A DNA stretch of 32,309 bases from a virus. Taxonomy: Duplodnaviria > Caudoviricetes. The notes under the pieces were generated by a model that made no database searches, was not told where the DNA came from, and saw only the letters and a list, made by a program, of their open reading frames with translations. The DNA is taken from positions 1 to 32,309 of IMG/VR virus record IMGVR_UViG_3300032272_000051. One strand, written 5' to 3'. Numbering within the stretch: the stretch's first letter is position 1; every line of letters starts with the position of its first letter. Both the position numbers and the translations under genes were made by a program. Of this stretch, positions 5,782-31,784 are shown piece after piece.

Positions 5782-5860
5782 GCTGATTACCTCTTTTAGT
5801 GAAATTAACCAAGGACAAACTCATAAAACATCTGCGGAGATTGTCCTCGGGGTGAAAATT

Positions 5861-6538: not shown

Positions 6539-6552
6539 GGTGGATCACAAAA

Positions 6553-6798
6553 CTAATTTAAAGATTCTTCCGAGTCAAGCGGATAATTTCTTCTCACCCT
6601 TCTCAACAGATTAGAAAGCAATTTTCTGGTGTTCTGGTTTGGCTTGCAAATTGCCTTGCCTGGATCATCTGCCAGGATCCTGTAAATTGTGCTGGCTGGC
6701 AACTGTGCCTTCATTGATGTCTTGCTACTTGTCCACCCGGTTCGCTTCATGATTTCTTCAATCGCTTCCCGAGTATCCTCTTTGGCATAAAGCTTCAT
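6553..6798 (-). CDS. Cro/XRE-like HTH transcriptional regulator
   Basis: 81 aa; IMKRTGWTSSKTSMKAQLPASTIYRIL...P...T fits an HTH; GAGGG RBS; first gene left of the divergent control region. Confidence 0.75.
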   Translation of the reverse strand: MKLYAKEDTREAIEEIMKRTGWTSSKTSMKAQLPASTIYRILADDPGKAICKPNQNTRKLLSNLLRRVRRNYPLDSEESLN

Positions 6799-6828
6799 TA
6801 GATATTTCCCTCAGTTAAATTCAAGCGA

Positions 6829-6920
6829 ATCCTCTCATAACCCAGGACACAATGCAAAACAAATAATATCTACTGGATCACGTTTAATGGTTTGCATAAC
6901 AAACTAACATTCTATAGACT
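6829..6920. promoter_or_regulatory. Divergent promoter region
   Basis: Rightward: TTGCAT (6892-6897), 17 nt, TAGACT (6915-6920). Weaker leftward: TTGCAT (6857-6852), 17 nt, GAGGAT (6834-6829). Confidence 0.55.
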
Positions 6921-6953
6921 CGGCAATGCATATAACTAAAAGAGGATAACGCA

Positions 6954-7298
6954 GTGAGAAAAATGTGCTTAAAACAAAGGGTAAATTGCATGATTGTCCG
7001 GGAGGATGGTCAGCATTTTGTCGGCTTTAATACCTGTGATGTAGGGCATACCTGCCCACGATCCGACCAGGGTGCAAAGTCAGGAGAAGACTACCATCTG
7101 TGCCAATCAGTACACGCAGAAATCCAGGCGGTAGAACTCGCAAAGGATAGTGCAGAGATTCCAGGCGAAGCCTATCTCTATGGTCACACCTATATCTGCA
7201 AGGATTGTCAGGAAGCATTGCTGGCTATCAATGTAAAAACTTTTCACATAGTAACCAGCCAGCCACCCTGCGCGAATTTTGCGGGTGGAAAATCGTGA
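6954..7298 (+). CDS. dCMP/cytidine deaminase-family zinc-binding protein
   Basis: C.KQRVNCMIV...GFN, SVHAE and CKDC zinc motifs; GAGGA RBS. Confidence 0.85.
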   Translation: MRKMCLKQRVNCMIVREDGQHFVGFNTCDVGHTCPRSDQGAKSGEDYHLCQSVHAEIQAVELAKDSAEIPGEAYLYGHTYICKDCQEALLAINVKTFHIVTSQPPCANFAGGKS

Positions 7299-8776
7299 GG
7301 TTTGGCTCGGTATGTAGCGGAGTAGAGGCTGCCTCCATGGCATGGCATCCTCTTGGATGGCAACCAAGCTTCTATTCTGAAATTGAGCCCTTCCCTCGGG
7401 CTGTCCTCACCCATCACTATCCTGATGTCCCATTGCATGGAGACTTCACAACCATCGGAGCAAAAGAATATGAGCCAATTGACCTTCTTGTCGGAGGAAC
7501 ACCTTGTCAATCCTTCAGTGTCGCAGGACTCAGAAAAGGAATGGCAGACGACCGTGGAAACCTGGCACTCGAATTCCTTAAACTTGCTGAACGAACACGG
7601 ACCAAGTGGGTGGTTTGGGAGAATGTTCCCGGTGTCCTGTCAAGTAATGGAGGACGGGACTTTGGATCCTTTCTCGGGGGATTGGGGGAAATCGGGTATG
7701 GGTATGCATACAGAATTTTTAACGCTCAATACTTCGGAGTACCACAGCGACGCAGAAGAGTGTTTCTTGTCGGATATCTTGGAGACTGGAGACCACCTGC
7801 AAGCGTATTGTTTGAGCGCGAAAGCCTGTATGGGTATCCTCCACCGGGCAGAAAAAAGAGGGAAGAAATTGCCAGAGCGCCTGGAACTGGCTTTACGATC
7901 GGTAGCGACCAGGTAGAAAGCTGTGAGCAAACTGGTCCCACAATTCTGGCAAGTGGTGCGCCCTATCGATGCACCGGTAGCAAAGGAGTGGAAGAACAAG
8001 CCCTGGTCATGCAGGAATGCGCTGAAGTATCCCCGAGCCTGACATCCAGTGGCCCACCTTTCAGCAGAACCGGCAACAGCCGGGTGGAAGCTGAAGCCAT
8101 GGTGGTAATGCCGATCAATACAATGGTATGCCAGGGCAGGCCCTCAGATGATGGCAGGATGGGTAGTGGGATTGGGGAGGATGGCGATCCATCCCCCACG
8201 ATTACTGCTGCCCACAGCCATGCTGTAGCATTTACCCAGAACCAGAGAGATGAAGTCCGTGAGGTAGATGTTCCCGGTGCGCTATCAGCCCAGCCTGGAA
8301 TGAAACAGCAGACTTTTATCGCTGAGACTCACTGTCTGCAGGGAGCCGGCGCCACATCCCAGAATTCTCAGGGGATGGGACACAATGAAGAAACTGCATT
8401 CACCCTGAATATCACTGATGTCCATGGGATTGCCCAGGTCTGGTCGATAATGCCCCAGAATAGCGGGAAGGATTACAAAGCCCGTCCGGTAAATATCTGC
8501 CAGCCCTTATTGGCTACTGGCCCAACAGCCGGAAACCAGGGTGGTGATGTGGTTCAAACCGGTATGCAAGTCAGGAGGCTCACTCCTGTTGAATGCGAGA
8601 GACTGCAGGGATTCCCTGACAATTTCACAAAAGTACCCTACCGGGGAAAGCCAGCAGAAAAATGTTCTGATGGTCCACGGTATAAAGCCATGGGAAATTC
8701 AATGGCTGTCCCAGTGATGGGATGGATAGGAAAAAGGATTGATGAGGTAAACAAGCGCCTGGAGGCAAAAAAATGA
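7295..8776 (+). CDS. DNA (cytosine-5)-methyltransferase with long variable region
   Basis: Motifs FGSVCSGVEA (I), GGTPCQSFS (IV), WENVPG (VI), QRRRRVF (VIII), RRLTPVECERLQGFPD (IX), YKAMGNS (X). Likely start is GTG 7295, overlapping the deaminase stop (GTGA). Confidence 0.95.
   Translation: MRFGSVCSGVEAASMAWHPLGWQPSFYSEIEPFPRAVLTHHYPDVPLHGDFTTIGAKEYEPIDLLVGGTPCQSFSVAGLRKGMADDRGNLALEFLKLAERTRTKWVVWENVPGVLSSNGGRDFGSFLGGLGEIGYGYAYRIFNAQYFGVPQRRRRVFLVGYLGDWRPPASVLFERESLYGYPPPGRKKREEIARAPGTGFTIGSDQVESCEQTGPTILASGAPYRCTGSKGVEEQALVMQECAEVSPSLTSSGPPFSRTGNSRVEAEAMVVMPINTMVCQGRPSDDGRMGSGIGEDGDPSPTITAAHSHAVAFTQNQRDEVREVDVPGALSAQPGMKQQTFIAETHCLQGAGATSQNSQGMGHNEETAFTLNITDVHGIAQVWSIMPQNSGKDYKARPVNICQPLLATGPTAGNQGGDVVQTGMQVRRLTPVECERLQGFPDNFTKVPYRGKPAEKCSDGPRYKAMGNSMAVPVMGWIGKRIDEVNKRLEAKK
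7470..7916 (+). CDS. Nested alternative-frame gene, M.EcoHK31I beta-polypeptide-like (148 aa)
   Basis: GGAG (7457-7460) 9 nt before ATG 7470. MFP...W..SGM...E....N..E....EEC.LS.ILET...L....I..RA..RG..LPE.L..A matches my recollection of M.EcoHK31I beta, which is also encoded out of frame inside its MTase gene. Confidence 0.7.
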   Translation: MSQLTFLSEEHLVNPSVSQDSEKEWQTTVETWHSNSLNLLNEHGPSGWFGRMFPVSCQVMEDGTLDPFSGDWGKSGMGMHTEFLTLNTSEYHSDAEECFLSDILETGDHLQAYCLSAKACMGILHRAEKRGKKLPERLELALRSVATR

Positions 8777-12227: not shown

Positions 12228-12740
12228 ATGGCGAAGTCAATGCAACCTACGCTGGAATTCTATGATCTGGGCAATGCAGGACAGGTCGTAAAGAAGTGGG
12301 AATGGAGGCTCAGGTGTGATTACGGGCTCACTTTGCCTGGACTCTCAACCGGGAAACAGCCCGACCAGGTGATACATCGCTCCAGGTATTACTCCCTGGT
12401 CCACAAGAATGGATTCTTTTACATCCAGGCTCATGTGGGCTGCGCCTGGGATTACGCCACGGGATATTTCGACGGTGATTACATCAAAGAAGCTTCCCTG
12501 GGCCACGATATTCTCCACTGGCTGATTGCCAAGGGTGTCATCGATACCAAATACAATGACGCGATCGATTACGAATTCAAACAGATACTCATGATCCGGG
12601 GGAATATAGCCCCATGGAGAGCCAGCATACTGATGAAGGGTGTGAACCTGGTCGATCAAAAGAACACGGGCATCGATCGCCCTGTAGTAAAACTCAGGAA
12701 AGGAAAGCGAATCAAAAACCACAAAAACCAAAAGAGGTAA
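12228..12740 (+). CDS. DUF1353-like protein
   Basis: G.AWD.ATG......EASLGHDILH......AID..FKQIL resembles DUF1353. Confidence 0.6.
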   Translation: MAKSMQPTLEFYDLGNAGQVVKKWEWRLRCDYGLTLPGLSTGKQPDQVIHRSRYYSLVHKNGFFYIQAHVGCAWDYATGYFDGDYIKEASLGHDILHWLIAKGVIDTKYNDAIDYEFKQILMIRGNIAPWRASILMKGVNLVDQKNTGIDRPVVKLRKGKRIKNHKNQKR

Positions 12741-12745
12741 GCAGC

Positions 12746-13078
12746 ATGAATGGGTACGAAACAGCAAAACCGCAGAATGAGCGCGATTGTCTAATGAATG
12801 CAACCGCTAAAGAGGGCTCCCAGACCAGTGTAGAGCGCATGGATAATGCAATTCACAACTTGTATCACATAACGGATCAGCTTCTTCACTTGCGCCTGGT
12901 CATCACCGGAGGCAGAACGGAAGAAGCCCAAAGAGATCCGGACGCGAAGCTTCCAGAGGAAGTACAGCCCGAGCCAGCACTGCGCGACATATTAACCACT
13001 GGCCCTGCCCGGATTAACGAACAGAAAGAGGTAGCCCTTGATCTTATAGGTGAGATCAGGCAGCTATTGATGATATGA
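12746..13078 (+). CDS. Hypothetical protein
   Basis: ATG 12746 with GAGGT RBS (in frame with the 12614 ORF). Confidence 0.65.
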   Translation: MNGYETAKPQNERDCLMNATAKEGSQTSVERMDNAIHNLYHITDQLLHLRLVITGGRTEEAQRDPDAKLPEEVQPEPALRDILTTGPARINEQKEVALDLIGEIRQLLMI

Positions 13079-13245
13079 ACGATTCTAAATCAGAGGAAAT
13101 AATCGCTGCACTGTGGACGATCTGCTGTCTGCTGTGCTTGGTGATCGATGAGAAAGCATGGGCAGTAGGATTCGGCATCAAGGCTGTCCTGGATATCCTG
13201 TGCTGTATCCGGGAATCTATCCGAGAGATGAGGGCTAAGATATGA
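13075..13245 (+). CDS. Small hydrophobic protein (56 aa, not in the ORF track)
   Basis: MNDSKSEEIIAALWTICCLLCLVIDEKAWAVGFGIKAVLDILCCI...; ATGA overlaps at both ends. Confidence 0.55.
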   Translation: MNDSKSEEIIAALWTICCLLCLVIDEKAWAVGFGIKAVLDILCCIRESIREMRAKI

Positions 13246-13475
13246 CACTGGCACTGATATTGCTGGCCTATGTGATAGCCATGTATGTCAACTGGTTGAT
13301 CCTGGAGGATGAGCGATGGATGGATCAATGGAGCAAGTGCATTGGATCTGTCCAGATCACAACTGATAATGCCCGAGACTTCATGCCCGGTGATATTGTG
13401 GAGGTGAATGGGCATCCCCTGCAAGTCTACAATGTAAGGGGAACTGTAATCACAGTGGGGAACAGACGACCATGA
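13242..13475 (+). CDS. Hypothetical membrane-anchored protein
   Basis: 77 aa, N-terminal TM, GAGGG RBS. Confidence 0.6.
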   Translation: MTLALILLAYVIAMYVNWLILEDERWMDQWSKCIGSVQITTDNARDFMPGDIVEVNGHPLQVYNVRGTVITVGNRRP

Positions 13476-13648
13476 CTGACAGGGATCGCCCGTCCAGTGG
13501 TCAGACTTTCAAGAGGCAAGAGGGTGAAAACACCCCCTGCAAGCGCCAGGAATTGAACTGTGGTGGGACCTGGGCAGGAGTGTATGGCTGCTGTGGTCGG
13601 TGCGTGAGATGTATAGCAACAAAACCAAAGGATAAGAATGAGCCATGA
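13472..13648 (+). CDS. Small Cys-rich protein (58 aa, not in the ORF track)
   Basis: MTDRDRPSSGQTF...PC.....NC.......GCCGRCVRC; ATGA overlaps at both ends. Confidence 0.5.
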   Translation: MTDRDRPSSGQTFKRQEGENTPCKRQELNCGGTWAGVYGCCGRCVRCIATKPKDKNEP

Positions 13649-13977
13649 ATGAACAGGACAGAAAGCAGATCAAGATAATGCAGGAAGACCAGGATATCCA
13701 AGAGCTCTTTGGCATGGATAGTGCCGAGATCGTCCACATCCGGCTGAGGGCATTACTGCGGATCATTGGCAGGGCTTTAAGCCCGAAGGAAAACCAGATC
13801 AGAAGCCTGACAGAACAACTCGATGATGCCCAGGAAACGATCTACCAACTGCAGGAGGATGCCCGGAAATCCCAGGGCGGGAAGGAAGCCATGGCCCAGC
13901 GCATCCTGGAACTGCAAGATGAAATCGATCAAATCAATGACAACCACGAAGTCCAGCAGGACTTAGACCAGGAGTAG
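13645..13977 (+). CDS. Coiled-coil hypothetical protein
   Basis: 110 aa, heptad-rich. Confidence 0.65.
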   Translation: MNEQDRKQIKIMQEDQDIQELFGMDSAEIVHIRLRALLRIIGRALSPKENQIRSLTEQLDDAQETIYQLQEDARKSQGGKEAMAQRILELQDEIDQINDNHEVQQDLDQE

Positions 13978-13979
13978 CT

Positions 13980-14180
13980 ATGCAAGTATCAGCCCAGAAA
14001 TTAACCCAAGCGCCCCCAGGATATAACTATCCTGATGCCAGGCTAACTACCTTCACCACCTTCCTGGTCGATAGTTTCCCCCAGGCAATTCCCCAGGCAT
14101 TCCAGGCAGAATTCCGCAAGAATGATCAGGGCGAGTTTGTTGGGGATTACACCCTGGATCCCGTAAGAGGTATACTGTGA
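13980..14180 (+). CDS. Hypothetical protein
   Basis: 66 aa, AGGAG RBS. Confidence 0.6.
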   Translation: MQVSAQKLTQAPPGYNYPDARLTTFTTFLVDSFPQAIPQAFQAEFRKNDQGEFVGDYTLDPVRGIL

Positions 14181-14344
14181 AGCCATTACGAGTGCCTGAG
14201 CGCCCTGCCCATTGTGCCGGTGCTTTGTTTTACAATAAGGAACAGGCTGTCTATGGTCCATATATCCTGGGAAAGTTTAAGCCCAGGAAGAATCCTATAG
14301 GACAGGCAATGGTGGCAGCCAAGCGAGTGAGACATGACAACTGA
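14177..14344 (+). CDS. Small basic hypothetical protein (55 aa, not in the ORF track)
   Basis: GTGA overlap, GAGGT RBS; MKPLRVPERPAHCAGALFYN...RVRHDN*. Confidence 0.5.
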   Translation: MKPLRVPERPAHCAGALFYNKEQAVYGPYILGKFKPRKNPIGQAMVAAKRVRHDN

Positions 14345-14864
14345 GAACGAAAACCCACTGAGTCCTGAAGACCAGGAACAGGTGGGACCTAACCAGTATT
14401 GGCGCCGGAGATTAAACCACGGCAAGCCCAGAGCCTATGAGACACCAGAGGACCTGATGGAAGCCTGTGTCGAATACTTTGAGTGGTGTGATCTCAACCC
14501 TTTATTCGAGGACAAACTGATGGCGGTAGGTGGCGATGCAGTTAATCGCAATCTCATCAAGGCGAGAGCGCCCACCCTGCAGGGATTGACTACCCATCTG
14601 GGTATTCACCGGGTGACCTGGAACAAGTGGAGGACATCTCAGCCGGACTTTGCCGATGTGATCGCCATGGTGGACAATGCCATGGAAGCGATCCAGCTAG
14701 AAGGCGCGAGTGCCGGGATATTCAATGGACAGATAATCTCCAGGCTGATCGGGCTGGTGGATAAGACAGAATCAAAGGGTGTCACCGGGCTGATAAGTCT
14801 CGATGACGTAGAGAACACCGACTCAGACAAACTTAAAGAAACCCTCCGGAGGATCCTGGAATGA
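14334..14864 (+). CDS. terS: Terminase small subunit (P22 gp3-like DNA-packaging protein)
   Basis: GNQ-like YW...HGKP..YETPEDL..AC.EYFEWC..NPL...RAPT..GL...GA.AG.FN..II.R.IGL.DK matches P22 gp3. Confidence 0.92.
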   Translation: MTTENENPLSPEDQEQVGPNQYWRRRLNHGKPRAYETPEDLMEACVEYFEWCDLNPLFEDKLMAVGGDAVNRNLIKARAPTLQGLTTHLGIHRVTWNKWRTSQPDFADVIAMVDNAMEAIQLEGASAGIFNGQIISRLIGLVDKTESKGVTGLISLDDVENTDSDKLKETLRRILE

Positions 14865-16809: not shown

Positions 16810-19002
16810 ATGTCAGACTACGAAACCGATAACGATTATGAAGGTCGAGGTGATGACGATCGCCTTGAAGACATCAAGCGCGAATTCGATCGCAATTTTG
16901 AAGCAAACCAAGAAACCCGCAGAAGGGCAGCAGATGATAGAGTATTTGCATGGGTGACGCAGTGGGATGATACCCTCCTGGAAGACACCGAGAACGCCTA
17001 CCGGGGTGAATTCAATATCATCCGTAAAGGCACAAGGCATATCATTGCCGACCTTAGAGCGAACCCTGTCCAAGTAGACTTTGAACCGGTAGACCAGGCG
17101 CGAGAAGATGGCGCCGAGATCCTGGATGGACTCTACCTGACTGATGACAGACGCAACACCTCCCTTGAATCCTATGACAATGCATCCCTGGAAGCAGTGG
17201 ATTGTGGCGTGGGTGGATGGGAACTGTATACAGAATATGAATCAAAACGTAATGGTGAGAAGCAGCAGGTAATTCGCCGGCGCCCCATTTACGAAGCGAA
17301 CAATGTTTCTTTCCCGGACTGCAATGCCAAGCGCCTGGACAAGTCTGATGCCATGAACTGGGGGATACTTGCCCCATATAGCGCCACTGGCTACTGTCGG
17401 CTGGTAAAGGAACTCACTGGTGAGGACAAGGATGTAGAGGATCTCAATCCGGACAGCTTCGCCCAGCCCGAGCAATCCTATGTATTCCCATGGATATCCG
17501 GACAAAGCGAGACAATCTATGTCTGTCGCTGGTATGAAAAAACCCTGGTAAAAGACAAAGTCCTGACGATGGAGGATCCTGGTGGCAATATCCAGCAGGT
17601 TCTGAACTCCCAGGTCGTGGAAATCATCGATGAGCTCATGGATGGTGGCTACCAGATAACAGATGAGAAAGTCATCGAGCGATACAGTGTCACCCTGACT
17701 ATCCTTTCCGGTGAGGAAGTATTATCCGACGCGGTAGAGATAGCCGGGGAAAACATCCCAGTGGTTCACACCTACGGTGAAAGGACTTTCGTTGAAGGTG
17801 AGGAAATATGGGAAGGCGCTATCAGGCTGGCGAAGGATCCCCAGAGACTGCGCAACTTTATGCTGTCCTATCTGGCTGAGATCGCTACCAGATCACCCCG
17901 TCCGAAGCCTATGTTCACCCCTGAAGAGGTGGCAGGACATGAGTGGATGTATGACAAATCCGGGGCTGAAAACAATTTCGCTTACTATATGTATAACGCT
18001 ATTGATGGCAATGGTAACCCGATCGAGAGATCCAGGGAGATGTTGCCACGGGCTGAGATGCCAGCCGGGATGGTTGAATTGTCCCAGGAGGCTCGCCAGG
18101 CTGTTGAGGATGTCGTCAATCCTGGAGTCCCGGAGGAATTCGCTGACAACCAGATGAGTGGCTACGCCATCGAGCAACTGACTGCCCGCTTCGATCAGCA
18201 GTCACTGGTATATCAGCAGAACATGAAACACGCCAAGCGATATGATGCCCAGGTCTACGCTGGCATGGCCACTATCGTTTATGATTCCCCACGAACAGTG
18301 ACTCTGACTGCCCGTGATGGGACCAGGAAACAGCAAGAATTACTGAGTACCGTGATGGACCAGGAGTCTGGAAACATTGTGGTGCTGAATGATCTGACGA
18401 ATGCAGAATTTGAAGTATTTGCCGAGATCGGGCAATCCTACTCATCAAAACGCGAAAGAACTCGGGATCACCTGGAGAACCTCGCAGAGAAAATGGCTGC
18501 CCTGGATCCGAATCTATCCAAAATTCTGGCGATGCAAGCCCTTACCCTGGTTGATGGTGTGGGACTCGATGACATCCGTGATTATGTGAGACAGCAACTG
18601 CTGATGAGTGGTGTTCGCAAGCCGGAAACCGAGGAAGAGATGCAGATGGTTCAGGAAGCACAGCAGAACCAGCAGCCAGATGCCATGACAATCGCTGCAC
18701 AAGCCGAACAGAGGAAGGCTGAGGCTGACAATATGAATGCCCAGACCAACCAGATTAAGGCTCAGACAGAGCAATTCAAGGCTGAGACAGGGCGATTCGC
18801 TGCCGAGGTGGATGCTGAAGTGGCTGGATCAACAGTCAAGCTTAATCAGGCAAAAGCTGGTGCTGAGGGCGCGAAAGCTTTCAGTAATCTGCGAGGATCG
18901 GCTGGAGTGCAGCAACCTGCTGCCAATGAGCCGGCCGCCCCTGTTCCTGGTCCCAGGAGAATGCGCTACAACCCAGAGTCCCGCAATTTAGAGAGCGCAT
19001 AA
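16810..19002 (+). CDS. Portal protein (P22 gp1-like)
   Basis: 730 aa; DD..F....QWDD.......YRGEFNII...NP....F.P.D......A..L.G.Y..D, IAGE.IPVV..YGE..FVEG.E..EG..RL.KDPQRL.N; C-terminal Gln/Ala-rich barrel. Confidence 0.95.
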   Translation: MSDYETDNDYEGRGDDDRLEDIKREFDRNFEANQETRRRAADDRVFAWVTQWDDTLLEDTENAYRGEFNIIRKGTRHIIADLRANPVQVDFEPVDQAREDGAEILDGLYLTDDRRNTSLESYDNASLEAVDCGVGGWELYTEYESKRNGEKQQVIRRRPIYEANNVSFPDCNAKRLDKSDAMNWGILAPYSATGYCRLVKELTGEDKDVEDLNPDSFAQPEQSYVFPWISGQSETIYVCRWYEKTLVKDKVLTMEDPGGNIQQVLNSQVVEIIDELMDGGYQITDEKVIERYSVTLTILSGEEVLSDAVEIAGENIPVVHTYGERTFVEGEEIWEGAIRLAKDPQRLRNFMLSYLAEIATRSPRPKPMFTPEEVAGHEWMYDKSGAENNFAYYMYNAIDGNGNPIERSREMLPRAEMPAGMVELSQEARQAVEDVVNPGVPEEFADNQMSGYAIEQLTARFDQQSLVYQQNMKHAKRYDAQVYAGMATIVYDSPRTVTLTARDGTRKQQELLSTVMDQESGNIVVLNDLTNAEFEVFAEIGQSYSSKRERTRDHLENLAEKMAALDPNLSKILAMQALTLVDGVGLDDIRDYVRQQLLMSGVRKPETEEEMQMVQEAQQNQQPDAMTIAAQAEQRKAEADNMNAQTNQIKAQTEQFKAETGRFAAEVDAEVAGSTVKLNQAKAGAEGAKAFSNLRGSAGVQQPAANEPAAPVPGPRRMRYNPESRNLESA

Positions 19003-22000
19003 ATGGCAAAGCCAGACCTGCTTAATCCATACCGGGGTCAGCCCATTGAGGTGGAGGTGGGCAATGATACTCTCATTGAATTGCCCCCAGGATCCAGCCC
19101 CCAGGACATGATGAATGCCATCGTGAAATGGCATCAATCCCCTGACTCTGGCAAATTCTACGATCCCCGCCCAAAACTGCTCAAGCCCATTAATGGTGGG
19201 CAATACAGGATCGAACCTGTTGAAGAGACTCTCCGGGATAAGCTGTTCAATAAAGCATTCGACTTCCTGGTCAGCGATAGTGATGATGCTATCTCCAGGC
19301 AAAGGGCGATCAGACGCGCTAGGGATGTGGTAACCGCGATCGACTTCACTCCAGGGGCAAGCGATGCGCTCCTGCTCAGTGATGCCCAGAAAGCCTACAA
19401 TGATGGAGACTTCCTTGAAGCTGCGGTTTTAACCGGGATCACTGCGCTCGGCATTGTGCCGGTGATCGGTGATGCTGGGGCTAATGCACTAAAAAAACTC
19501 AAGGGAAATAAGAATTTAAGCAAGGAAGTCAGAAGGAAACTGAACCTCTGGCATGGATCACCTCACAAATTTGATGCCTTCGACCTGGGTAAGATTGGAA
19601 CAGGTGAAGGAGCGCAAGCTTTTGGATCAGGTTTATATCTGGCTGAGGACAAGGCTGTCGCCGACTTCTATCGAGAACAGGGTGCGCGAGGCATGGGATC
19701 GATATCCCTGTATAACCCTGACATTGATGAACTGGGTGAGGAAGCATGGGAAGAGATGGTCCCGATCATCAATAAGCACAAGATTCCAGGCGATATAGCC
19801 CCAAATCAGACAGAAGCTGGCATGGTTCGCGGTATGCTCGATGACTATGGTGATGTCATGAGTGATGCAGAAAAGGCTGTCCTGGAGCGATATGCGTCGC
19901 CTCCTGGATCGCTGTATAACGTGGAAGTAGATGTCGATCCCGATTCTATTCTGGATTGGGAGAAGCCATTAAGCGAACAGCCCAATGTACTGGAGAACCT
20001 GACAGACTATGTCGCTGCGAAGGCTGCAGAAAAAGGCGGGAATGTCCTGCTGACAGACAAGTACACTCAAATGATCAAGGGGATGCTCGATGCCCCGGAA
20101 GAAGTCACCGGGATGGAGTTATATTCAGAGCTCGGTGATGCACTGAAGTCTGGCGACCAGGCGAAAAACCAGGATCATGCCAGCAAAATACTGAATGAAG
20201 CAGGAGTCCCTGGTCACCGATACCTTGATGCTCACAACCGAGGGCAGCTTGATGCTGCAGGAAGCCCAGCCGAAGGCACTCGCAATTTCGTTATCTATGA
20301 TGATAAAAGCCTGAAGGTAGTTTCCAGGAATGGCCAGCCGGTAACCCAGGAACAGAGAAAGGAAGCCCTGGATCTGTGGCATGGATCGCCTCACAAGTTT
20401 GACGAGTTTGACCTTGGCAAAATGGGATCGGGTGAGGGCGCTCAGGCTCAGGGCTGGGGATCGTACCTTGCAGAAAATCAAGAGGTGGCAGGATTCTATA
20501 AGGATCTCCTATCCACTGAACAGGCTCTTTCTCCTGAAGTACGAAAGGAATTGTCTGAGCAGTTTGCAAAAGAATATCCCCAGGCAATGGCTGATGAAGG
20601 TGTCACAGCCGAAATGATGGCAGAAGGGGATTCGTACCTTCTTCAGAGAATGATTGACGATCACGCTACTCCTGAATTCAAAGCCATGGTGTCAGACAAA
20701 ACCCCTTCAGGATATCTTTACAATGTTAAAGCGAACCTGGATCCCGATACTCTCATTGACTGGGATGCTCACATCCTTGATCAATCAGAAGCTGTCCAGG
20801 GTGCAATAGAACAATATAAAACCAAGAACCCAGAGAAGTGGGCAAAATATGAAGCCGATCCCCCTGATGGCTACATGAACGGACAATCCTTTTATAAGTT
20901 TCTCTCTCAGGAAGAAGGTGGCCAGGAGAAAGCATCCAAGATGCTCAATGGCATGGGGCTTTCTGGAGTCCGGTATTACGATGGCAGTAGCAAAGGCGGT
21001 ATGCCTGTTCTCAATATGGATATCCCGGAGGAGTACGAATTCGCTGCCGATGAGGCTGGATCAGTTATCAGTGACATGGCTGGTGATGTGGATGACGCGA
21101 TATCTATGCTCGAAAATCGCGCTGATGATGGCGATGAGGATGCACTGTATGCCCTGGACTTCATCAATAAGTACAGGACAGAGATCGATCAAACAATGGA
21201 AGCCAGAAAGAGAAACTATGTAGTTTTTGATAGTGATCTGCTGGAGATTACCCATCGAAACGGTGAACCTCTTACCAAGGAAGAACAAGCAGCGATCGAT
21301 GCATGGCATGGATCCCCACACAAATTTGACGAGTTTAGCCTGGAGAAAATAGGTACAGGTGAAGGGAATCAGTCATACGGGCATGGGCTTTATTTTACTG
21401 AGACCAGGGGTATCGCTGAAGACTACGCCAAGATGCGCATCCGCAATAATAATGTCGCTAATAACACCACGATTAATGGAAAGAAACTGCAGGAATTCAA
21501 GGACTCCCTCCCTCCGGAAGAGCGCGAGATATTTGAGGGCGCGATGTCCAATTTTGAGGACCTCTATTCTGGTGGTCACATGGATACTGTGGAATTCGAC
21601 CAGGAATATGCTGATGATTTCCGGGAGATGATTACCCAGGAGAATGCTGGCGAATACATCTATGGCCCTGATGGGCAGCCCATGAATATCGATCCAGCTA
21701 TTGCCGAGTCTCTGGCAACCCGGATGGAATCAATAGTGACAGGCAAACCTGCCGAGAACCTATACGAAGTGGGCATTAACGCGAATAAGCAGGATATGCT
21801 GGACTGGGACTTGCCTATGTCTGTCCAGCCAGAAAAGGTACGGAATGCCTTGACGGAAGCCTACAATGAAACAATGGGTGGATCTTTCGAGCAAATGCTG
21901 GAAGGAAAGGATGTTGATGAGATGATCGGGATCGCCCAGAGAATTGATCCAAACAGTAGCTGGAATGAACTGGAAGACGATGAAGTCTGGGATGTGAACG

Positions 22001-24393
22001 AACTCAGGGAGCAAATGATTGAAGCCTATGCCGATGAGGACATGGCTTCTTATTTTGGTGATGCCAAGCCAATGGAGGCTCAGACAGGTGAGTCAGTATA
22101 CAAACAACTGGCTACCCGGATGAGCCCTGAAGAGATATCAGCCCTGCTGAATAGTAAGGGAATCCCTGGTATTCGATATGACACTGGGACAACCAGGTCC
22201 AAGAGCATCATGGAGAAAAAGCTGGCCACAATGGTAGCCAAGCATGGTGGAGACATCGATGCTGGGCTGGCTGAATTCATGCGAGGTGTACACGAATCCC
22301 CTGCAGAAAAAGCCAAGATGGAAGAGCAATTCAGGAAATCGCTAGAACGCAAAGAGAGCAATCTAGTGATCTTTGATGATTCTCTCATCGATGTGAGATC
22401 CAGGAACGGTGAGCCAATCACTCCAGCCGAGCGCGAGGAGGTGATCCAGAAGTATTACCGGGGCAGTGAGTACAATGATTCCCCCAGGCTGAACCCTGAA
22501 ACCGGGCTGATCCACGTTTCCCCGGATGAGATTGAAGCCGGCGCCTATGGTCCTGTCGATGAGATGGAGATCGATGTGGTGAATCCCTTCGATCCTGACA
22601 ACCCTGAACACCTGGATCTGCTCCGGGAGAACATGGACATGGAGAAATTCGCGCAATCTGCCGACCAGGTGAATGGCAGCAGAACAAGCTGGCTGGGTGA
22701 TAGCGATCTGACACCGGAAGAATACTTCAACATAGGACTCGATGAAGGTGGGCTGTACCAGACAATGGAAATCCCTGCAGTGACGGACCAGATCAAGGCA
22801 CTGGGCTTTGATGCTGTCCAGATGAGGGAGTACCAGGGTGGCGTGAAGAACCTCGCAGTATTCAGCCCGGATCAGATCACCAAGGTGGGAGCGCCTACCC
22901 CGGAGAGACTATTACGAGCGCGAGAGCAGGGCTTTAATACCAGCTTGCCTCTATATCATGGCACTCCAGCAGCAGCCGAGGATATCGATGCGCAAGGAAT
23001 TCTGCCTGGAGAATCTGGTGTCACCTATCTGGCCAGTGATCCGAATACTGCAAACTATTTCACTGATGGTCCTCAAAATGAATGGTTTCAGGGAAGTCCA
23101 GGGAGCACTGCGGTATTCCCCTATTACACGAAAGCGAAGAATTTCTTTGATCCAACAGACTCCGAACAGATGGAGAAGATAATCCCTGATATAGAAGAAT
23201 ACGCCGAGACTTTCGGGGGCATTACTGACGAGTATGGTGATCTGATGCCTACCGACCAGGTTATTGAGCAGATAAAGGATGGCAACTACGAATACATGGA
23301 ACTCGATGGAGTGCAACACGCGATCGGCAAAAATGGCTTTGATGGATTCAAGGTGAAGGAATTCGCAAATGATACCACCTGGAATTATGGGGTATATGAC
23401 ACCGATCACTTGCGATCAGTCTATGACAACTTTGAAGCTGCCCGGGAAGTCCAGCGACCAGGCGCTGAGGGATTCGATCCCAGGTTTTTGAAAGGTGTCA
23501 ATGTTGATCCTCGAAAGGGTGAGATACCGAAGCTTGAAGGGCTGGAAAGGACAGTATCAGCATCAAGAATAGGGGAGATTCCCGAGGTATCGATCGCTGA
23601 CTACGAGGGCAGGGGCTTTATCAGTCACTATGCCGATCGGATGGATGCCGGTGTATTCCTGGAAGCCATCAATGGTGAGGAATTCGATCCCGTCAATCTG
23701 CTGGGTGGCCAGGATTTCATGTTTGATAATCTGGCAGCTTGGGCTGGGGATTTAAAACCAGCAAATATGTATATGCGCCTGGCAAATGAGATCCTGGAAG
23801 AAACCGGACAGCCACCACTTTGGCTACCCTGGAGAATGGCGCCGACAGGTAGTGACTTCAATACCTCAGCCGGTGAGACTATGATCGCCCATGCCTCTGC
23901 CAATATGCGACCAGGGGTGAAGAGATCGCTCAATGCCCAGCTTAAAAAATTAATTCCAGGCTTCAAGTCAGTGGATGATCCAATGTCCATCGAGATGTTC
24001 CGATCGCTGCCCAGAGTCCAGAGAGACAGGGTGGTATCCACCATGGACAAGGGATTCCGGGAGAAGGGAGGATTATCTATATCTCAGGCACGAATGGCTG
24101 TATCAGCCCCTAATCAGATCAATGCGCCACAGTTTGGACTGCAGAACATAGGGGAGATCGATCCGAAAGGAACGATAGAGAGGTCCACCCACAATACCTA
24201 TCCGTATACCATCCCTGGTCAGGGCTTGGGAGTGATGAAGGAGGAGATCGAGATATTCGACATGATCCCTGAATATCTGAAGGCGAAAAACTACGATCGG
24301 ACGCAACCCGAAGAAGGATTGCGCAGATCGCTTGAGATGAACCCGGTGTCGGGTATTATTAGTGCAGACTTATTGAAACGTCTGGGGCTATAG
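19003..24393 (+). CDS. Giant polyvalent protein with five tandem ADP-ribosyltransferase-like (ART-PolyVal-type) modules
   Basis: 1796 aa. Three WHGSPHKFD.F....G.GEG.Q..G.G.Y..E....A..Y repeats (aa 183, 459, 768) and two divergent ones (YYRGS aa 1151; YHGT aa 1318), each ending N[FYL].[VI][FY][DS]. Confidence 0.85.
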   Translation: MAKPDLLNPYRGQPIEVEVGNDTLIELPPGSSPQDMMNAIVKWHQSPDSGKFYDPRPKLLKPINGGQYRIEPVEETLRDKLFNKAFDFLVSDSDDAISRQRAIRRARDVVTAIDFTPGASDALLLSDAQKAYNDGDFLEAAVLTGITALGIVPVIGDAGANALKKLKGNKNLSKEVRRKLNLWHGSPHKFDAFDLGKIGTGEGAQAFGSGLYLAEDKAVADFYREQGARGMGSISLYNPDIDELGEEAWEEMVPIINKHKIPGDIAPNQTEAGMVRGMLDDYGDVMSDAEKAVLERYASPPGSLYNVEVDVDPDSILDWEKPLSEQPNVLENLTDYVAAKAAEKGGNVLLTDKYTQMIKGMLDAPEEVTGMELYSELGDALKSGDQAKNQDHASKILNEAGVPGHRYLDAHNRGQLDAAGSPAEGTRNFVIYDDKSLKVVSRNGQPVTQEQRKEALDLWHGSPHKFDEFDLGKMGSGEGAQAQGWGSYLAENQEVAGFYKDLLSTEQALSPEVRKELSEQFAKEYPQAMADEGVTAEMMAEGDSYLLQRMIDDHATPEFKAMVSDKTPSGYLYNVKANLDPDTLIDWDAHILDQSEAVQGAIEQYKTKNPEKWAKYEADPPDGYMNGQSFYKFLSQEEGGQEKASKMLNGMGLSGVRYYDGSSKGGMPVLNMDIPEEYEFAADEAGSVISDMAGDVDDAISMLENRADDGDEDALYALDFINKYRTEIDQTMEARKRNYVVFDSDLLEITHRNGEPLTKEEQAAIDAWHGSPHKFDEFSLEKIGTGEGNQSYGHGLYFTETRGIAEDYAKMRIRNNNVANNTTINGKKLQEFKDSLPPEEREIFEGAMSNFEDLYSGGHMDTVEFDQEYADDFREMITQENAGEYIYGPDGQPMNIDPAIAESLATRMESIVTGKPAENLYEVGINANKQDMLDWDLPMSVQPEKVRNALTEAYNETMGGSFEQMLEGKDVDEMIGIAQRIDPNSSWNELEDDEVWDVNELREQMIEAYADEDMASYFGDAKPMEAQTGESVYKQLATRMSPEEISALLNSKGIPGIRYDTGTTRSKSIMEKKLATMVAKHGGDIDAGLAEFMRGVHESPAEKAKMEEQFRKSLERKESNLVIFDDSLIDVRSRNGEPITPAEREEVIQKYYRGSEYNDSPRLNPETGLIHVSPDEIEAGAYGPVDEMEIDVVNPFDPDNPEHLDLLRENMDMEKFAQSADQVNGSRTSWLGDSDLTPEEYFNIGLDEGGLYQTMEIPAVTDQIKALGFDAVQMREYQGGVKNLAVFSPDQITKVGAPTPERLLRAREQGFNTSLPLYHGTPAAAEDIDAQGILPGESGVTYLASDPNTANYFTDGPQNEWFQGSPGSTAVFPYYTKAKNFFDPTDSEQMEKIIPDIEEYAETFGGITDEYGDLMPTDQVIEQIKDGNYEYMELDGVQHAIGKNGFDGFKVKEFANDTTWNYGVYDTDHLRSVYDNFEAAREVQRPGAEGFDPRFLKGVNVDPRKGEIPKLEGLERTVSASRIGEIPEVSIADYEGRGFISHYADRMDAGVFLEAINGEEFDPVNLLGGQDFMFDNLAAWAGDLKPANMYMRLANEILEETGQPPLWLPWRMAPTGSDFNTSAGETMIAHASANMRPGVKRSLNAQLKKLIPGFKSVDDPMSIEMFRSLPRVQRDRVVSTMDKGFREKGGLSISQARMAVSAPNQINAPQFGLQNIGEIDPKGTIERSTHNTYPYTIPGQGLGVMKEEIEIFDMIPEYLKAKNYDRTQPEEGLRRSLEMNPVSGIISADLLKRLGL
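19546..22450 (+). repeat. Three degenerate intragenic repeats of the ART-like module
   Basis: TGGCATGGATCnCCwCACAArTTTGAyG at 19549, 20377 and 21304; RNG[QE]P.T..E linkers at 20326, 21256 and 22402. Confidence 0.9.
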
Positions 24394-24766: not shown

Positions 24767-25885
24767 ATGGCTGTAGAAGGCACAATATCACTCAAAGAAC
24801 TGAAGAAGCAGAACGAAAAGGAAGCGGAGGAACTTGCAAAGGCTGAAGAAGCCACCCTAAAAGCCAAAGAGGACAGTCTTTATGAAGATGACCTGGGAGA
24901 TAACGACGAACTCACAGATGATGAGAATCAGGTTTCTGGGGATGACGATGCAGATCCCGATGTTTCAGGTGAAGGGGATGCTGCAGGAGATGACAGCGAA
25001 GGGGATCCTGATGCTGATGATCAAGATCCAGATAAAGAAACTAAAACTGAAGATTGGATGCTTGATGATGAAGGAAACGCTCCGGATCCAGAAAAGAAAT
25101 ATACTGATTCGGATGCCGGTAAGATCAGGAAGAAGTACAAAGGCACGATCGATGAACTCAAGCAGGAAATAGCCCAGCTAAAAGAGGCAAAGCCCCAGCC
25201 TGGGACTCAAAAGCCCATAATTCCCAATGTATCCGACCTCAAAGAGCCAGAGCGGGACAAATTCAAGTCCGACCTGGAGTATCTGGAAGCCAGGCAGGAC
25301 TATAAAGCCGAAATAGCAAGGCGCGAGATACTGACACACCAGCAAGCCCAGCAAATCGAGCAGAAACAGACAGAAGCCGAGCAAAAAGCCAATGAGGAAG
25401 TGGACAGCCACTATGCCCGAGCTCATGCCCTGGTCCAGAAGTCCGGGATAAAGCCGGAACGCTACCAGGAAGCCGATACCATCGTGAGAAAGACTCTCGA
25501 GGAGCGATTCCCTGGATCTGGTGAGAAAGTCACCGACAGCCTGATTGCCAGGCTGGGTGAAGGCTCGGAGAAGGTTATATTTAACCTGGGTGTGAACAAG
25601 GAAAGGATGAATACCTTCCTCGGCAAGTTTGATTCGGATCCATCTGGGCTGTCATCTGCCATGTATCTGGAGTCTTTAAAGGCGAAGCTTGGCGCTGGTG
25701 GTAATACCCGGAGTAATGCTCCTCCTCCTCCCCACCAGCTTGGTGGCGATGGAAAGCCGGATGGTGGACTGAAGCGATCATTGCTGAAAGCCTACCGAGC
25801 AGCGCATTCCAAGCGTGATGGACAGGCAGCATGGGCCGCGAAGAAGAAGGCGAAGGCTGCAGGTATTGATGTGAGCGAGTGGTAG
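24767..25885 (+). CDS. Scaffolding protein (P22 gp8-like)
   Basis: 372 aa; acidic N-terminus, coiled coil, HY.RA..L.....YQEA, SEK....LG.N.E and a basic C-terminal helix; GGAGG RBS; lies between portal and coat. Confidence 0.85.
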   Translation: MAVEGTISLKELKKQNEKEAEELAKAEEATLKAKEDSLYEDDLGDNDELTDDENQVSGDDDADPDVSGEGDAAGDDSEGDPDADDQDPDKETKTEDWMLDDEGNAPDPEKKYTDSDAGKIRKKYKGTIDELKQEIAQLKEAKPQPGTQKPIIPNVSDLKEPERDKFKSDLEYLEARQDYKAEIARREILTHQQAQQIEQKQTEAEQKANEEVDSHYARAHALVQKSGIKPERYQEADTIVRKTLEERFPGSGEKVTDSLIARLGEGSEKVIFNLGVNKERMNTFLGKFDSDPSGLSSAMYLESLKAKLGAGGNTRSNAPPPPHQLGGDGKPDGGLKRSLLKAYRAAHSKRDGQAAWAAKKKAKAAGIDVSEW

Positions 25886-26349: not shown

Positions 26350-27636
26350 ATGACTGCTCAAGCCGTATCGGCGGGTAAAATCGCTGAAGTAATTTTTGAG
26401 AACGCTCTGGAAACCTTCGAGTCTCAGCAAATGATGCTGAACCTTGTTGATTTCTGGCAGCCGGACGCATCTGCTCTGCAGAATTCAAACAACTATATCT
26501 GGAGAAATGTGGAGCAACACGCCCCCATTCTTTCCGGCTGGGACCTGACAGGTTCTGAAACTGGTATCATCGAAGAGACTTACCCTGCATTGCTGGGAAC
26601 TCCCACGAATGACTACGTTACGCTACGCGCTGACAATCTTCGTGACAAGGGCTTCTGGGAACGTCGCGGTAAAGCTTCAGGTGAGCGCCAGGCTTCAAAC
26701 CTGAACTCTGCCATCGCTACTGCCATGGTCGAACAGGGCTCACTGCATTATGATAACAATGCCACTTCAGGCTTTGATTTCATCTCAGAAGGGCAAGCCC
26801 TGATGAATGAAAGACAGCTTGCAAGCCCAGAACGCTGCTTCCTGCTGAATGATCGAACAAACCAGGTCTTCGGTAACGAACTTGCTGGTCGTCAGACTCT
26901 TCAGGGCCGCCCTGCGGATACCTGGAATACTGGCCAGATCGGTGCGAATGTTGCCCAGTTTGATGTATATACTGGTTCATTCCTTCCATTGCTGGATGGT
27001 GGTGCGGATCCTGCTGCGACCTGTACAGGCGCTCAGACTTTTGCCCCATCTGCTGGTTCTGTTTCAGCTACTGGTGTGGTAACTAACGTGGATTACCGCG
27101 AAGCTGATCTCACGATCTCTGCTTCTGGTTCATACACTGTTGGTGACAAGATCCATCTGACTAACCCAGGTACTGGTGTTATCAATGCTCTAGGGCTTGA
27201 TGATAAGACTGATACCGGTGTAGCGATGACTTTCACTATTGTGGACATCCCGGATGCGACTACGATCACTATCTTTCCGAAGCCTATCGCTCTGGATGAT
27301 GCTGGTCTGTCTGATCTGGAGAAAGCATACGCCAATGTCGATACCACCATCTTGAACTTGTGTGTGGTGACCAGGGTGAACACTTCTGCCTCTATCCGTC
27401 CTAACCTTTTCTGGGACAAATCTGCTGTTGAAGTAATGGGTGGCTCTGTGCCAGCCGAACTTTTCCAGGAGTTTGGTGGCAAGCGTGTGATCACTGAGAC
27501 CATGTCCAATGGTCTGACACTGTATATGCTTTACGATGGCGCGATAGCTGACATGACTCTGTCATTCAGGCTGTTCACATGGTACGGCATCACGGTGAAA
27601 AACCCGTCTGCTGTAGGTGTAGCTGAAAACCGCTAA
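26350..27636 (+). CDS. Major capsid protein (P22 gp5 coat family)
   Basis: 428 aa; Q.S.N.IW..VEQ.AP...GWDLTG..TGI.E......LG.P.ND...LRAD.LRD, PKPIALDD..LS...KAYANV.T and R...WYG....NP..VGV match the P22 coat. Confidence 0.96.
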   Translation: MTAQAVSAGKIAEVIFENALETFESQQMMLNLVDFWQPDASALQNSNNYIWRNVEQHAPILSGWDLTGSETGIIEETYPALLGTPTNDYVTLRADNLRDKGFWERRGKASGERQASNLNSAIATAMVEQGSLHYDNNATSGFDFISEGQALMNERQLASPERCFLLNDRTNQVFGNELAGRQTLQGRPADTWNTGQIGANVAQFDVYTGSFLPLLDGGADPAATCTGAQTFAPSAGSVSATGVVTNVDYREADLTISASGSYTVGDKIHLTNPGTGVINALGLDDKTDTGVAMTFTIVDIPDATTITIFPKPIALDDAGLSDLEKAYANVDTTILNLCVVTRVNTSASIRPNLFWDKSAVEVMGGSVPAELFQEFGGKRVITETMSNGLTLYMLYDGAIADMTLSFRLFTWYGITVKNPSAVGVAENR

Positions 27637-29861: not shown

Positions 29862-30204
29862 GGTAGTGAACAGAACGCTCCGGCTGAATGCCAGTGAACT
29901 GAGGGAGATGACAGGATGGCCTGAAGCCATGATCGAGGAGTTTCTGTCATTACTGGATAACCTGAACTCAGTGATTATCAGCAACAACAGCACTGTTACT
30001 GTGGTTGAAGAGACTTCAGAAATCGCATCGGCAGCAGATGGGCAGATTGGCTGGATCATATCCAGGATGAAAGACCTGGGGAAGGATATCGCTGCTGTTG
30101 AAGAACTTGTTGCCCAGGCTAATTCGTGGGCATTAAAGGCGATAAAAAGAGAGTCAGGTGTTAAAATGTCCCAGATTGCTGCAAGGATAAATGCTGGACA
30201 ATGA
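29854..30204 (+). CDS. Short tail-needle-like protein (P22 gp26 N-terminus-like)
   Basis: Located after gp10; RLNAS.L....WP....E...coiled coil resembles the gp26 N-terminus. Confidence 0.5.
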   Translation: MAEVVNRTLRLNASELREMTGWPEAMIEEFLSLLDNLNSVIISNNSTVTVVEETSEIASAADGQIGWIISRMKDLGKDIAAVEELVAQANSWALKAIKRESGVKMSQIAARINAGQ

Positions 30205-31784
30205 TAAGATTAAAAGGTGTCAATACACAGCTAGAAGTGGTCCTCGGTGAATCCGTAGGATCAGAACTTGATGTTGTCTGCTCATACGGCAATATCAAAT
30301 TCACCTCAGCAGAACTGACTGACCTGGATAGCCGGGCGCTCAAAACCACAAACACAACCCCCATCATCATTGCCGGCCCTTCTGCCTCAGAGACTGATAC
30401 TGTCGGTGTCGAGCAGATCAGCATATACAATGACAATGGCAGGGCTCACACAGTAAAAGTCCAGATTAACGATGGTATTGACACTTTCGTGATCAAGGGC
30501 GCGACACTTCAGCCTGGAGATTCCCTTCTCTATGATAATGGCTGGGCTGTCGAAAAAAAAAATAATATAGGATCGTCCAGCAATACCACCACCACCCCAT
30601 TAAGCCCATCTCAGGAATTCATTGGCCCCTGGGAGAATGTGGACGAGCGCGACATAATTGCCTCGATTGAATGCGACACCAATGCCACCAGCTACTTTGA
30701 GTTTTCTGATGATCAGATAAATTTCGTTTCCGTCCCACCAGAGGGACACCCTTTATTCCCTGGCAACCATGAATTCCATGTAAAAGAAAAGGCTGGGCGA
30801 TTCTTCAGGCTGAGGATCCACAATGGCTTAACAGCCATGACTTACCTGAGAGCCTATACCTACTATGGTGAGTATCGAACACCTACGGCATCCCTGAATC
30901 AATCGCTCTCAGGTGATGCTGATGCCACTACCACCAGGCCCTCAGACTTCTTTGACGAAGTGGCGATCGGTCGAAGGGAGGAGACTCACTCTCATGTAAT
31001 GTTTGGCAACCGATCGGTGCTTAATATCGCTGATGGATCTGCCCTGATATGCCCTGACAATACAACCAACACCCCCACAATCATTACGGCCCCTGACACC
31101 TATACGATCACTTACACCCCTGCCAGCGATGGACTGGGAACTAATGGGGCCTTGTCTCTCCTGATTGAGCATATCGATCAGAATGGCGAAGAACAGTATG
31201 ATGTCCACACCCTGAGCAATACTGGATCTGATGTCACCAGCTTCAGTGGGTACGGGGTGAATGGAATGACTGTCCTGAGTAGTGGGGCAGCATCCCCAGC
31301 AGTAAATGACAATAATGTCGCTGCGATCTCGATCGAGGATACTACTGGTGGCAATGTCTTTACCTATATGCCAGCAGCTACTGGCATCTCAAAAACTCTG
31401 GTATTTTACTGCCCATTCAATGCCACAGCAGTTTTGAAAAAGACCAGGCTGAGTGCCACAAAAATCACAGGGGCAACCCCGGTGATCTCCTGGCGTGGAA
31501 AAGTGTGGGTGAGAAATACTGGCATCACGATCGATGCCTACGAAGAGGACATGGATACTGCTCTGGATAACAGGCTGGAAGAGGATCCAGGATACGCTAT
31601 CGATTCCGGCAATGTAGTCTGGGTCGAGGCAGAAACAGACAAGAATGCTTCAGTGGTGTCGGGACGCTTTGTTATAGTAACTTACAATAATGGGATCCTG
31701 GCTGCTGCAGGTACAGGTTTATATGCGGGTGCTACAATAGCTGAACACGCGATCGGAGAGATCGGAATTGGAGGAAATTCATAA
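30201..31784 (+). CDS. Putative tail/fibre structural protein
   Basis: 527 aa, Thr/Ser/Gly-rich and beta-rich (SSSNTTTTPLS...FIGPWE motif), in the tail module. Confidence 0.65.
   Translation: MIRLKGVNTQLEVVLGESVGSELDVVCSYGNIKFTSAELTDLDSRALKTTNTTPIIIAGPSASETDTVGVEQISIYNDNGRAHTVKVQINDGIDTFVIKGATLQPGDSLLYDNGWAVEKKNNIGSSSNTTTTPLSPSQEFIGPWENVDERDIIASIECDTNATSYFEFSDDQINFVSVPPEGHPLFPGNHEFHVKEKAGRFFRLRIHNGLTAMTYLRAYTYYGEYRTPTASLNQSLSGDADATTTRPSDFFDEVAIGRREETHSHVMFGNRSVLNIADGSALICPDNTTNTPTIITAPDTYTITYTPASDGLGTNGALSLLIEHIDQNGEEQYDVHTLSNTGSDVTSFSGYGVNGMTVLSSGAASPAVNDNNVAAISIEDTTGGNVFTYMPAATGISKTLVFYCPFNATAVLKKTRLSATKITGATPVISWRGKVWVRNTGITIDAYEEDMDTALDNRLEEDPGYAIDSGNVVWVEAETDKNASVVSGRFVIVTYNNGILAAAGTGLYAGATIAEHAIGEIGIGGNS

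Follow-up and report, generated by a model that had tools for sequence, protein, structure and literature searches.

A giant protein with a leader, five ART-PolyVal-like modules and an unnamed C-terminal domain encoded between the portal and scaffold genes of a P22-like podophage

The window analyzed here is the entire IMG/VR virus record IMGVR_UViG_3300032272_000051 (Duplodnaviria; Caudoviricetes), a linear stretch of 32,309 nucleotides (nt), about 73% complete according to CheckV, and the subject is a giant open reading frame (ORF) in its late region. Judging from the sequence, the source genome is a P22-like podophage, with the late-region order small terminase, large terminase, P22 portal, ORF of 1796 amino acids (aa), scaffold, P22 coat, gp4-like and gp10-like genes (Table 1). 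The first base of the giant ORF is the one following the portal stop; both this start and the position between portal and scaffold, given in an earlier note made from the DNA letters, agree with the coordinates. In G+C content the ORF is not set apart from its surroundings (0.48-0.52). The encoded protein consists of an N-terminal leader, five modules resembling ADP-ribosyltransferases (ARTs) and a C-terminal domain (C-domain); the leader and the C-domain were missing from the earlier description.

Three clear and two more divergent repeats had been noticed in this protein, and their motifs lie where they were placed: WHGSPHKFD is found at aa 183, 459 and 768, YYRGS at aa 1151, YHGT at aa 1318, and N[FYL][VAG][IV][FY][DS] at aa 428, 738, 1120, 1283 and 1461. 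The RNG[QE]P linker, described as joining the repeats, is present in three copies only (aa 442, 752 and 1134), and there is none between modules 4 and 5. The whole protein matches the Pfam family ART-PolyVal (PF18760) in four stretches with 85.3 bits, the gathering cut-off being 31.2, and the modules taken singly match the same family with 16-25 bits, under the cut-off (E 2.4e-4, 3e-4, 3.8e-5, 0.021 and 5.1e-5 for modules 1 to 5, respectively). Since the whole-protein score exceeds the cut-off and every module matches alone, the repeats are not a chance similarity, and the proposed family assignment holds. A feature search with module 4 still gives ART-PolyVal clusters at 0.92.

The modules are of two types. 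Type-A modules (modules 1-3) are 270-380 aa long and have four core blocks split by three variable inserts. Type-B modules (modules 4 and 5) are compact, 150-180 aa, and mutually related (27% identity over 103 aa, pairwise E 1e-5). All modules are very acidic, with isoelectric points (pI) of 4.1-4.6, a range given here with no baseline from the rest of the phage proteome. The longest DNA repeat family in the giant ORF is only 82 nt at 72-73% identity, which argues against a duplication introduced by assembly. In a tree of module cores the three type-A modules of the window are not grouped, though long branches make the tree weak, and no order of events is claimed from it. An iterated profile built from modules 4 and 5 retrieved no full-length relatives among the homologous proteins collected, and module 5 had no tblastn match in 50,697 annotated phage records.

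Table 1. Parts of the giant protein and the genes around it (positions in the window)
Feature	Position	Strand	Remarks
P22-like portal, upstream neighbor	16810..19002	+	PF16510, E 9.5e-121; stop abuts the giant-ORF start
Giant ORF: leader, five ART-like modules, C-terminal domain	19003..24393	+	1796 aa, 199.5 kDa, pI 4.5, ATG start
N-terminal leader, aa 1-177	19003..19533	+	D..P..GDA...G.lP motif; hydrophobic stretch aa 137-155
Module 1, type A, aa 178-445	19534..20337	+	H184, Y212, Y223, D409, N428; model shows an ART fold plus helical inserts
Module 2, type A, aa 455-760	20365..21282	+	motifs, Pfam match
Module 3, type A, aa 764-1140	21292..22422	+	conserved Asp after RY displaced by one residue
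Module 4, compact type B, aa 1148-1300	22444..22902	+	Arg in place of the His, His in place of the Tyr
Module 5, compact type B, aa 1303-1485	22909..23457	+	H1319, Y1342, GFD motif, N1461; Pfam match positions 7-136 of 140
C-terminal domain, aa 1486-1796 (311 aa)	23458..24390	+	unmatched in Pfam and PHROGs; core predicted to be YTH/EVE-like, bearing inserts
Small convergent ORF, 90 aa	24359..24631	-	GGAGG ribosome site; overlaps the 3' end of the giant gene
Scaffold-like gene, downstream neighbor	24767..25885	+	phrog_8865, weak (E 6.7e-5), plus its place ahead of the P22 coat gene
P22 coat gene	26350-27636		Pfam search

Module 1, the one module that was folded, was modelled with AlphaFold from a 55-row alignment (predicted local distance difference test, pLDDT, 84; predicted template modelling score, pTM, 0.80), and the models were compared with 48,161 solved chains; fold assignments rest on VIA-align. 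The top structural match is chain B of 9K3A (residues 1420-1603), from the pre-ejectosome of cyanophage A4 (Z 11.0, root-mean-square deviation (rmsd) 5.0, 163 aligned residues), followed by diphtheria toxin (Z 8.2), tankyrase 2 (7.9) and then PARPs, ParT, MbcT and AcrIF11, while the lower rows are mostly diphtheria-toxin-like domains, PARPs, tankyrases, RES toxins, Arr and AcrIF11. Foldseek also ranked 9K3A chain B first for module 1 (E 1.4e-3), and neither the module-1 nor the C-domain model had a solved-structure match in Foldseek at E<=0.001. According to this model, module 1 has the diphtheria-toxin/PARP ART fold of the His-Tyr type, so that the fold expected for the modules is supported by AlphaFold and VIA-align for this module, with the Foldseek value just given. 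In sequence searches of solved structures, type-A profiles gave chance matches only, and module 5 gave nothing. Chain B of 9K3A is likely gp27, the only pre-ejectosome protein seen with residue numbers that high (Cys1715). The strings "ADP-ribos" and "ribosyl" are absent from the accessible main text of the 9K3A pre-ejectosome paper, where the ART-like domain of this solved structure goes unnamed.

The presumed position of the catalytic Glu, at the beginning of the strand that follows the acceptor loop, is occupied by Asn in all five modules; this equivalence is taken from the PARP motif and from the strand order of the model, rather than from a residue-level superposition. The same position was examined in 110 homologous modules, obtained from 119 other phmmer hits with 132 module starts after 7 starts without downstream blocks had been dropped and duplicates collapsed; the residues were counted with the Asn column masked. 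Asn was found in 88, Cys in 20, Thr in 2 and Glu in none. At the same time, the strand-2 Tyr is kept in 110/110 modules, the strand-1 His in 94/96 aligned ones (2 have Thr; 14 unaligned) and the Asp following the RY motif in 87/87 (23 unaligned), which argues for selection on the pocket. With Asn at the Glu site, the modules are not classifiable as H-Y-E enzymes, and the "H-Y-E" label first given to them has to be dropped. The ART-PolyVal family has been described as H-Y-D (PMC5512222); the GFD motif of modules 4 and 5 and the Asp after RY of the type-A modules provide candidates for the strand-5 Asp of that description. The loss of Glu does not exclude catalysis, because the phage ART AcrIF11 is active although its site is the non-canonical H-F-H-D, and a helical region of it is predicted to recognize the target (PMC12421852, accessible part). 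The R-S-E active site of the T4 Alt/VIP2 type is not found in the modules. The strand-1 His and strand-2 Tyr are present in modules 1, 2, 3 and 5, while module 4 has neither. Module 4 is probably not a standard transferase, and it may be inactive or of different chemistry.

The slot after the portal varies between related phages. Nine portal relatives of the window were compared (L001-L009; L-numbered names are virus loci, and P-numbered names are homologous proteins). The orthologue in L001 has a leader (68% identity), two type-A modules (30-42%) and a C-domain (67%). L003 encodes one ART module and a C-domain (12243-14609, +); an in-frame TGA interrupts its ART module and its C-domain is short of about 115 aa, a state that reflects either decay or a sequencing or assembly error. 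In L004 the post-portal gene (5323-7608, +) has a related leader followed by a DUF7178 cargo (E 1.8e-5) and then by a 121-aa ORF. L007, L008 and L009 have no such gene after the portal, and in L002, L005 and L006 the sequence ends at or just past the portal. Moreover, in L015 and L094 a window-like leader is joined straight to the C-domain, again after the portal. L015/L094, L003, L001 and the window therefore form a series of 0, 1, 2 and 5 ART modules between the leader and the C-domain, and the survey of module number proposed earlier for this locus indeed reveals variation, with 0, 1 and 2 modules in the relatives.

The same comparison, extended to the inserts of six modules, in which unrelated pairs stay near the shuffled level, shows that the inserts of the three type-A modules of the window are unrelated to each other (8-40% identity, shuffle z <= 2). 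Their counterparts occur in L001 in other combinations: in L001 module 2, insert 1 is 59% identical to that of window module 1, inserts 2 and 3 are like those of window module 3 (48% and 56%), and in L001 module 1, insert 1 is like that of window module 2 (43%). At the sequence level, then, the variable inserts appear as shuffled between modules.

Among 119 homologues of 987-3143 aa, one type-A module is found in 104, two in 14 and at least three in none, type-B modules being uncounted. In this sequence comparison the five-module array appears at the high end of the homologues examined, though the architecture lists accompanying PMC5512222 may include similar cases. One family of 1000-1600-aa proteins (P0003-P0020) has a type-A module, often a second module, an internal C-domain and a long extension.

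The leader matches no Pfam family, LPD families included. Related leaders head genes encoding only ARTs, only the C-domain, or DUF7178, and BLAST of 103 distinct leaders gave 65 pairs that cross the cargo types; for instance, the leader of a C-domain gene (L010) and that of an ART gene (L098) are 58% identical over 107 aa. The D..P..GDA...G.lP motif is common to the 18 leaders picked for alignment, of which 1/18 has a weak match to the pre-toxin family PT-TG (PF14449, E 0.18). A scan of metagenome contigs with the leader returned only the window's own contig. The leader is a candidate head-targeting segment.

The C-domain is the least known part of the giant protein. Pfam and PHROG searches, LPD, YTH and EVE families included, left it unmatched, as did a search of the 50,697 annotated phage records, and no description of the family was found in the accessible literature on ART-PolyVal or on EVE/YTH/PUA-like domains in combination with phage terminase. 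Its relatives comprise 434 in viral contigs and 1,489 clusters at 50% identity (E<=0.001), and in prokaryotes only 2 loci in 185,579 genomes, both in metagenome-assembled genomes. Residues D1545, R1546, Q1570, W1580, D1618, R1674, R1686, R1697 and Q1705 are near-invariant, W1580 being kept in 148/150 representatives. C-domain copies are mostly stand-alone genes of about 390-540 aa. At 79/87 loci a gene for terminase, portal, scaffold or capsid lies no more than 1.5 kb away; 55 of these 87 are upstream of the large terminase, 11 lie between portal and scaffold or capsid, and the rest are elsewhere or cut, many of the loci being near-duplicates and hence not independent events. In 45 chosen long representatives of the 150 listed (82 exceed 600 aa), ART-PolyVal is the fusion partner in 14, and LPD23, transglycosylase, S-adenosylmethionine lyase and PcfJ are further partners. 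The lyase fusion, in P0284 (PF23780, E 6e-11), fits a defence-countering role for the C-domain family, S-adenosylmethionine lyases being an anti-restriction type of enzyme. A gene of phrog_858 ("starvation-inducible transcriptional regulator"; L017, 596-958, and 18 similar ORFs) recurs in packaging modules that bear the C-domain.

The C-domain model (pLDDT 90, pTM 0.87) was compared with the same 48,161 chains. In VIA-align, 9 of the top 10 matches bear titles of YTH domains, the best one with Z 8.1, rmsd 3.8 and 136/157 residues, and the remaining rows of the top 17 are proteins that we take to be of the EVE and ASCH families; a repeat alignment on YTH gave a best Z of 8.6 (rmsd 3.7, 128/155 residues). 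A Z near 8 is at the level where the tool warns of a common arrangement, and the identities are 3-13%. Foldseek retrieved 17 predicted phage structures, one of them annotated as a structural protein (Flavobacterium elemo phage), for which a literature search found no virion proteomics. Profile methods gave no comparable signal: hhalign of the C-domain against 30 EVE sequences from one phylum yielded a probability of 0.14%, within block-shuffled controls, with or without the predicted inserts; a search for YTH sequences to align gave 1 weak, stop-containing match in 301 genomes; the solved-structure sequence search with the C-domain profile gave 0 matches, and the feature search no usable one. 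From the model, the core of the C-domain is predicted to be YTH/EVE-like (PUA-like fold), and W1580 is a candidate equivalent of the YTH cage Trp. Since many polar residues are near-invariant, the domain may also be an enzyme with this fold.

Evidence for packaging comes from homologues and gene context. Module 1 matches 17 of the 50,697 annotated phage records, among them gp5 of Sulfitobacter phage phiGT1 (QLB38217.1), a 387-aa protein with one module, 29% identity being found over 99% of module 1. In phiGT1, with its P22-like portal, the gene order is portal-gp4-gp5-gp6-scaffold, and gp5 was detected in virions by mass spectrometry with 12 spectra and SC/MW 0.29, compared to 0.67 for the portal and <0.2 for contaminants (PMC10386132, Table S3). 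Other type-A modules reside inside large proteins annotated as internal virion or structural proteins of T7-like phages, including Bp-AMP1 and RS-PI-1. About 44% of phage ARTs are in contexts suggesting head packaging, according to the accessible part of PMC9503650. As for the head-packaged effector suggested in the earlier note, packaging of the giant protein in the head is thus likely, by homology with the one-module gp5 and from the gene context, and by itself it is better supported than the full mechanism set out below.

Several other features of the window deserve mention. The 90-aa convergent ORF has a counterpart at the same place in L001 (10359-10580, -; 44% over 75 aa, E 3e-15), the only one found in the loci compared, and might encode a cognate inhibitor or regulator. 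The same genome encodes a C5 cytosine DNA methyltransferase (7205-8776, +; PF00145, E 4.8e-52), whose tie to the predicted reader domain is speculative. Following the gp10-like gene, a 527-aa ORF (30201-31784, +) with no Pfam or PHROG match has 1 relative, in the same position in L003 (28% over 287 aa).

The reading that we prefer, which in our judgment stands an even chance of being correct, is that the protein is a head-packaged, injected polyvalent cargo. The giant gene would be made late, its leader would bring a few copies of the protein into the head, and the protein would leave the head together with the DNA; the His-Tyr modules, relying on the conserved Asp and no Glu, would then carry out NAD+-dependent mono-ADP-ribosylation of different host targets, with the inserts choosing the target, and the C-domain would hold nucleic acid. 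A number of observations weigh against this. The catalytic Glu is replaced by Asn, module 4 is without the canonical His and Tyr, and literature searches found no activity data for any type-A module. The YTH/EVE likeness is without sequence-profile support. The slot is dispensable, with the gene absent from L007-L009 and the L003 copy stop-containing and shortened, and only 21/73 type-A loci lie within 1.5 kb of a recognized head gene. What was detected in virions is a homologue of 41 kDa, far smaller than the acidic 200-kDa protein, and detection does not by itself show ejection. The size of 200 kDa, the pI of 4.5 and the lack of a peptidase motif make ejection a real difficulty: HExxH, the mark of a self-processing peptidase, is absent from the giant protein, and a self-processing metallopeptidase was rejected on this ground.

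The packaged and ejected modules could instead bind or hydrolyse NAD+ or ADP-ribose-derived immune signals, acting as a sponge or NADase to which the copies add capacity. The Asn or Cys, never Glu, at the presumed catalytic site and the presence of RES-type NAD+-consuming toxins (MbcT, NatT) among the fold matches suit this idea, but a small-molecule role leaves three large, mutually unrelated, shuffled inserts per module unexplained, and the modules are divergent rather than near-identical copies; we consider it unlikely. It is somewhat less probable still that the ART folds are catalytically dead parts of an internal head or ejection structure (a DNA organizer or mimic), in which case the C-domain would be the functional core. 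The closest solved structure does come from a pre-ejectosome, and the accessible paper on it reports DNA anchoring while its main text is silent on ART activity. The modules are also very acidic in absolute terms, and relative to L001 the C-domain is better kept than the modules (67% vs 30-42%). However, the pocket residues are conserved while the surfaces diverge, and the close phages that have no such gene or carry another cargo are not what one expects of an essential structural part.

The improbability grows further for a late-transcript gene acting in the producing cell, in late host remodelling or exclusion of rival elements, with no virion delivery. C-domain genes occupy several places of the packaging module (55/87 upstream of the large terminase), an arrangement that suits co-expression no less than packaging, and the product of the small convergent ORF, which is conserved, might be a cognate inhibitor; yet gp5 was detected in phiGT1 virions, and some internal virion proteins contain fused type-A modules. 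A broader and rather doubtful extension of the injected-cargo reading would be a polymorphic head-cargo system of podophages independent of MuF, in which the leader loads interchangeable effectors. Its commonest cargo would be virion-delivered YTH/EVE-like readers of modified bases (about 1,500 clusters), and here a reader would be combined with five Glu-less ART writers, their inserts recombined in a cassette-like manner, to disarm modification-dependent or other defences at DNA entry.

The main interest of the locus lies in its leader-cargo system, in the shuffling of inserts and in the C-domain family, which has no name. Leaders and inserts apparently change places as cassettes do, and this points to an arms race during DNA entry. 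The C-domain represents a large phage family that is absent from Pfam and whose predicted fold is that of modified-base readers. Moreover, since phiGT1 is cultured, carries this kind of module at the corresponding place and contains it in the virion, the long-predicted activity of polyvalent ARTs becomes assayable.

Among known systems, the closest are the ART-PolyVal polyvalent proteins (Iyer et al. 2017, PMC5512222), defined in the accessible text by 2-15 domains and a portal-terminase phage context. The giant protein, with its seven parts, falls under this definition: it scores above the PF18760 cut-off, is multidomain, lies in a portal-terminase context and has several ART copies. Multi-copy ART polyvalent proteins have been published with up to 12 copies, in the Pseudomonas prophage protein WP_023121221.1 (PMC5512222), so that the novelty initially attributed to the five-ART array was overstated, and five copies in a row are, taken alone, no more than a published polyvalent theme would lead one to expect. 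The differences are that the giant protein has no metallopeptidase motif, that three of its modules form an insert-rich subtype with Asn at the presumed Glu site, and that its leader and C-domain are outside all Pfam families; the words "PUA", "YTH" and "ASCH" are absent from the main text of PMC5512222. phiGT1 gp5 shares the type-A module, the P22-like portal and the portal-to-scaffold slot, but it has one module and no C-domain; it is annotated as hypothetical ("head module"), and ADP-ribosylation is unmentioned in the main text of PMC10386132.

MuF toxins also occupy the post-portal slot, putative ARTs accounting for 14% of 191 (Jamet et al. 2017, PMC5576092, accessible part). As in these polymorphic toxins, the gene stands right after the portal, an N-terminal part is followed by variable C-terminal cargo, the cargo includes ARTs, and there is a small ORF downstream. 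Unlike them, the giant protein has no MuF domain (according to Pfam and PHROGs, not the paper's own MuF3/MuF4 profiles), its leader is a different short motif found also elsewhere in the packaging module, and the small ORF is convergent, not co-oriented. If the injected-cargo reading holds, the protein resembles T4 Alt in being a head-packaged, injected ART, but Alt belongs to the R-S-E clade, whereas the modules are of the His-Tyr, diphtheria-toxin/PARP-like kind. AcrIF11 (PDB 6KYF) is likewise a diphtheria-toxin-like phage ART with no canonical Glu and a helical insert predicted to select the target; it is small and single-domain, with a Z of only 6.3 to module 1. Finally, the C-domain has a predicted core that can be superposed on YTH domains and a near-invariant Trp, as in the YTH/EVE/ASCH (PUA-like) readers of modified bases, from which it differs in being twice the size, in its large inserts and in its location in phage head modules.

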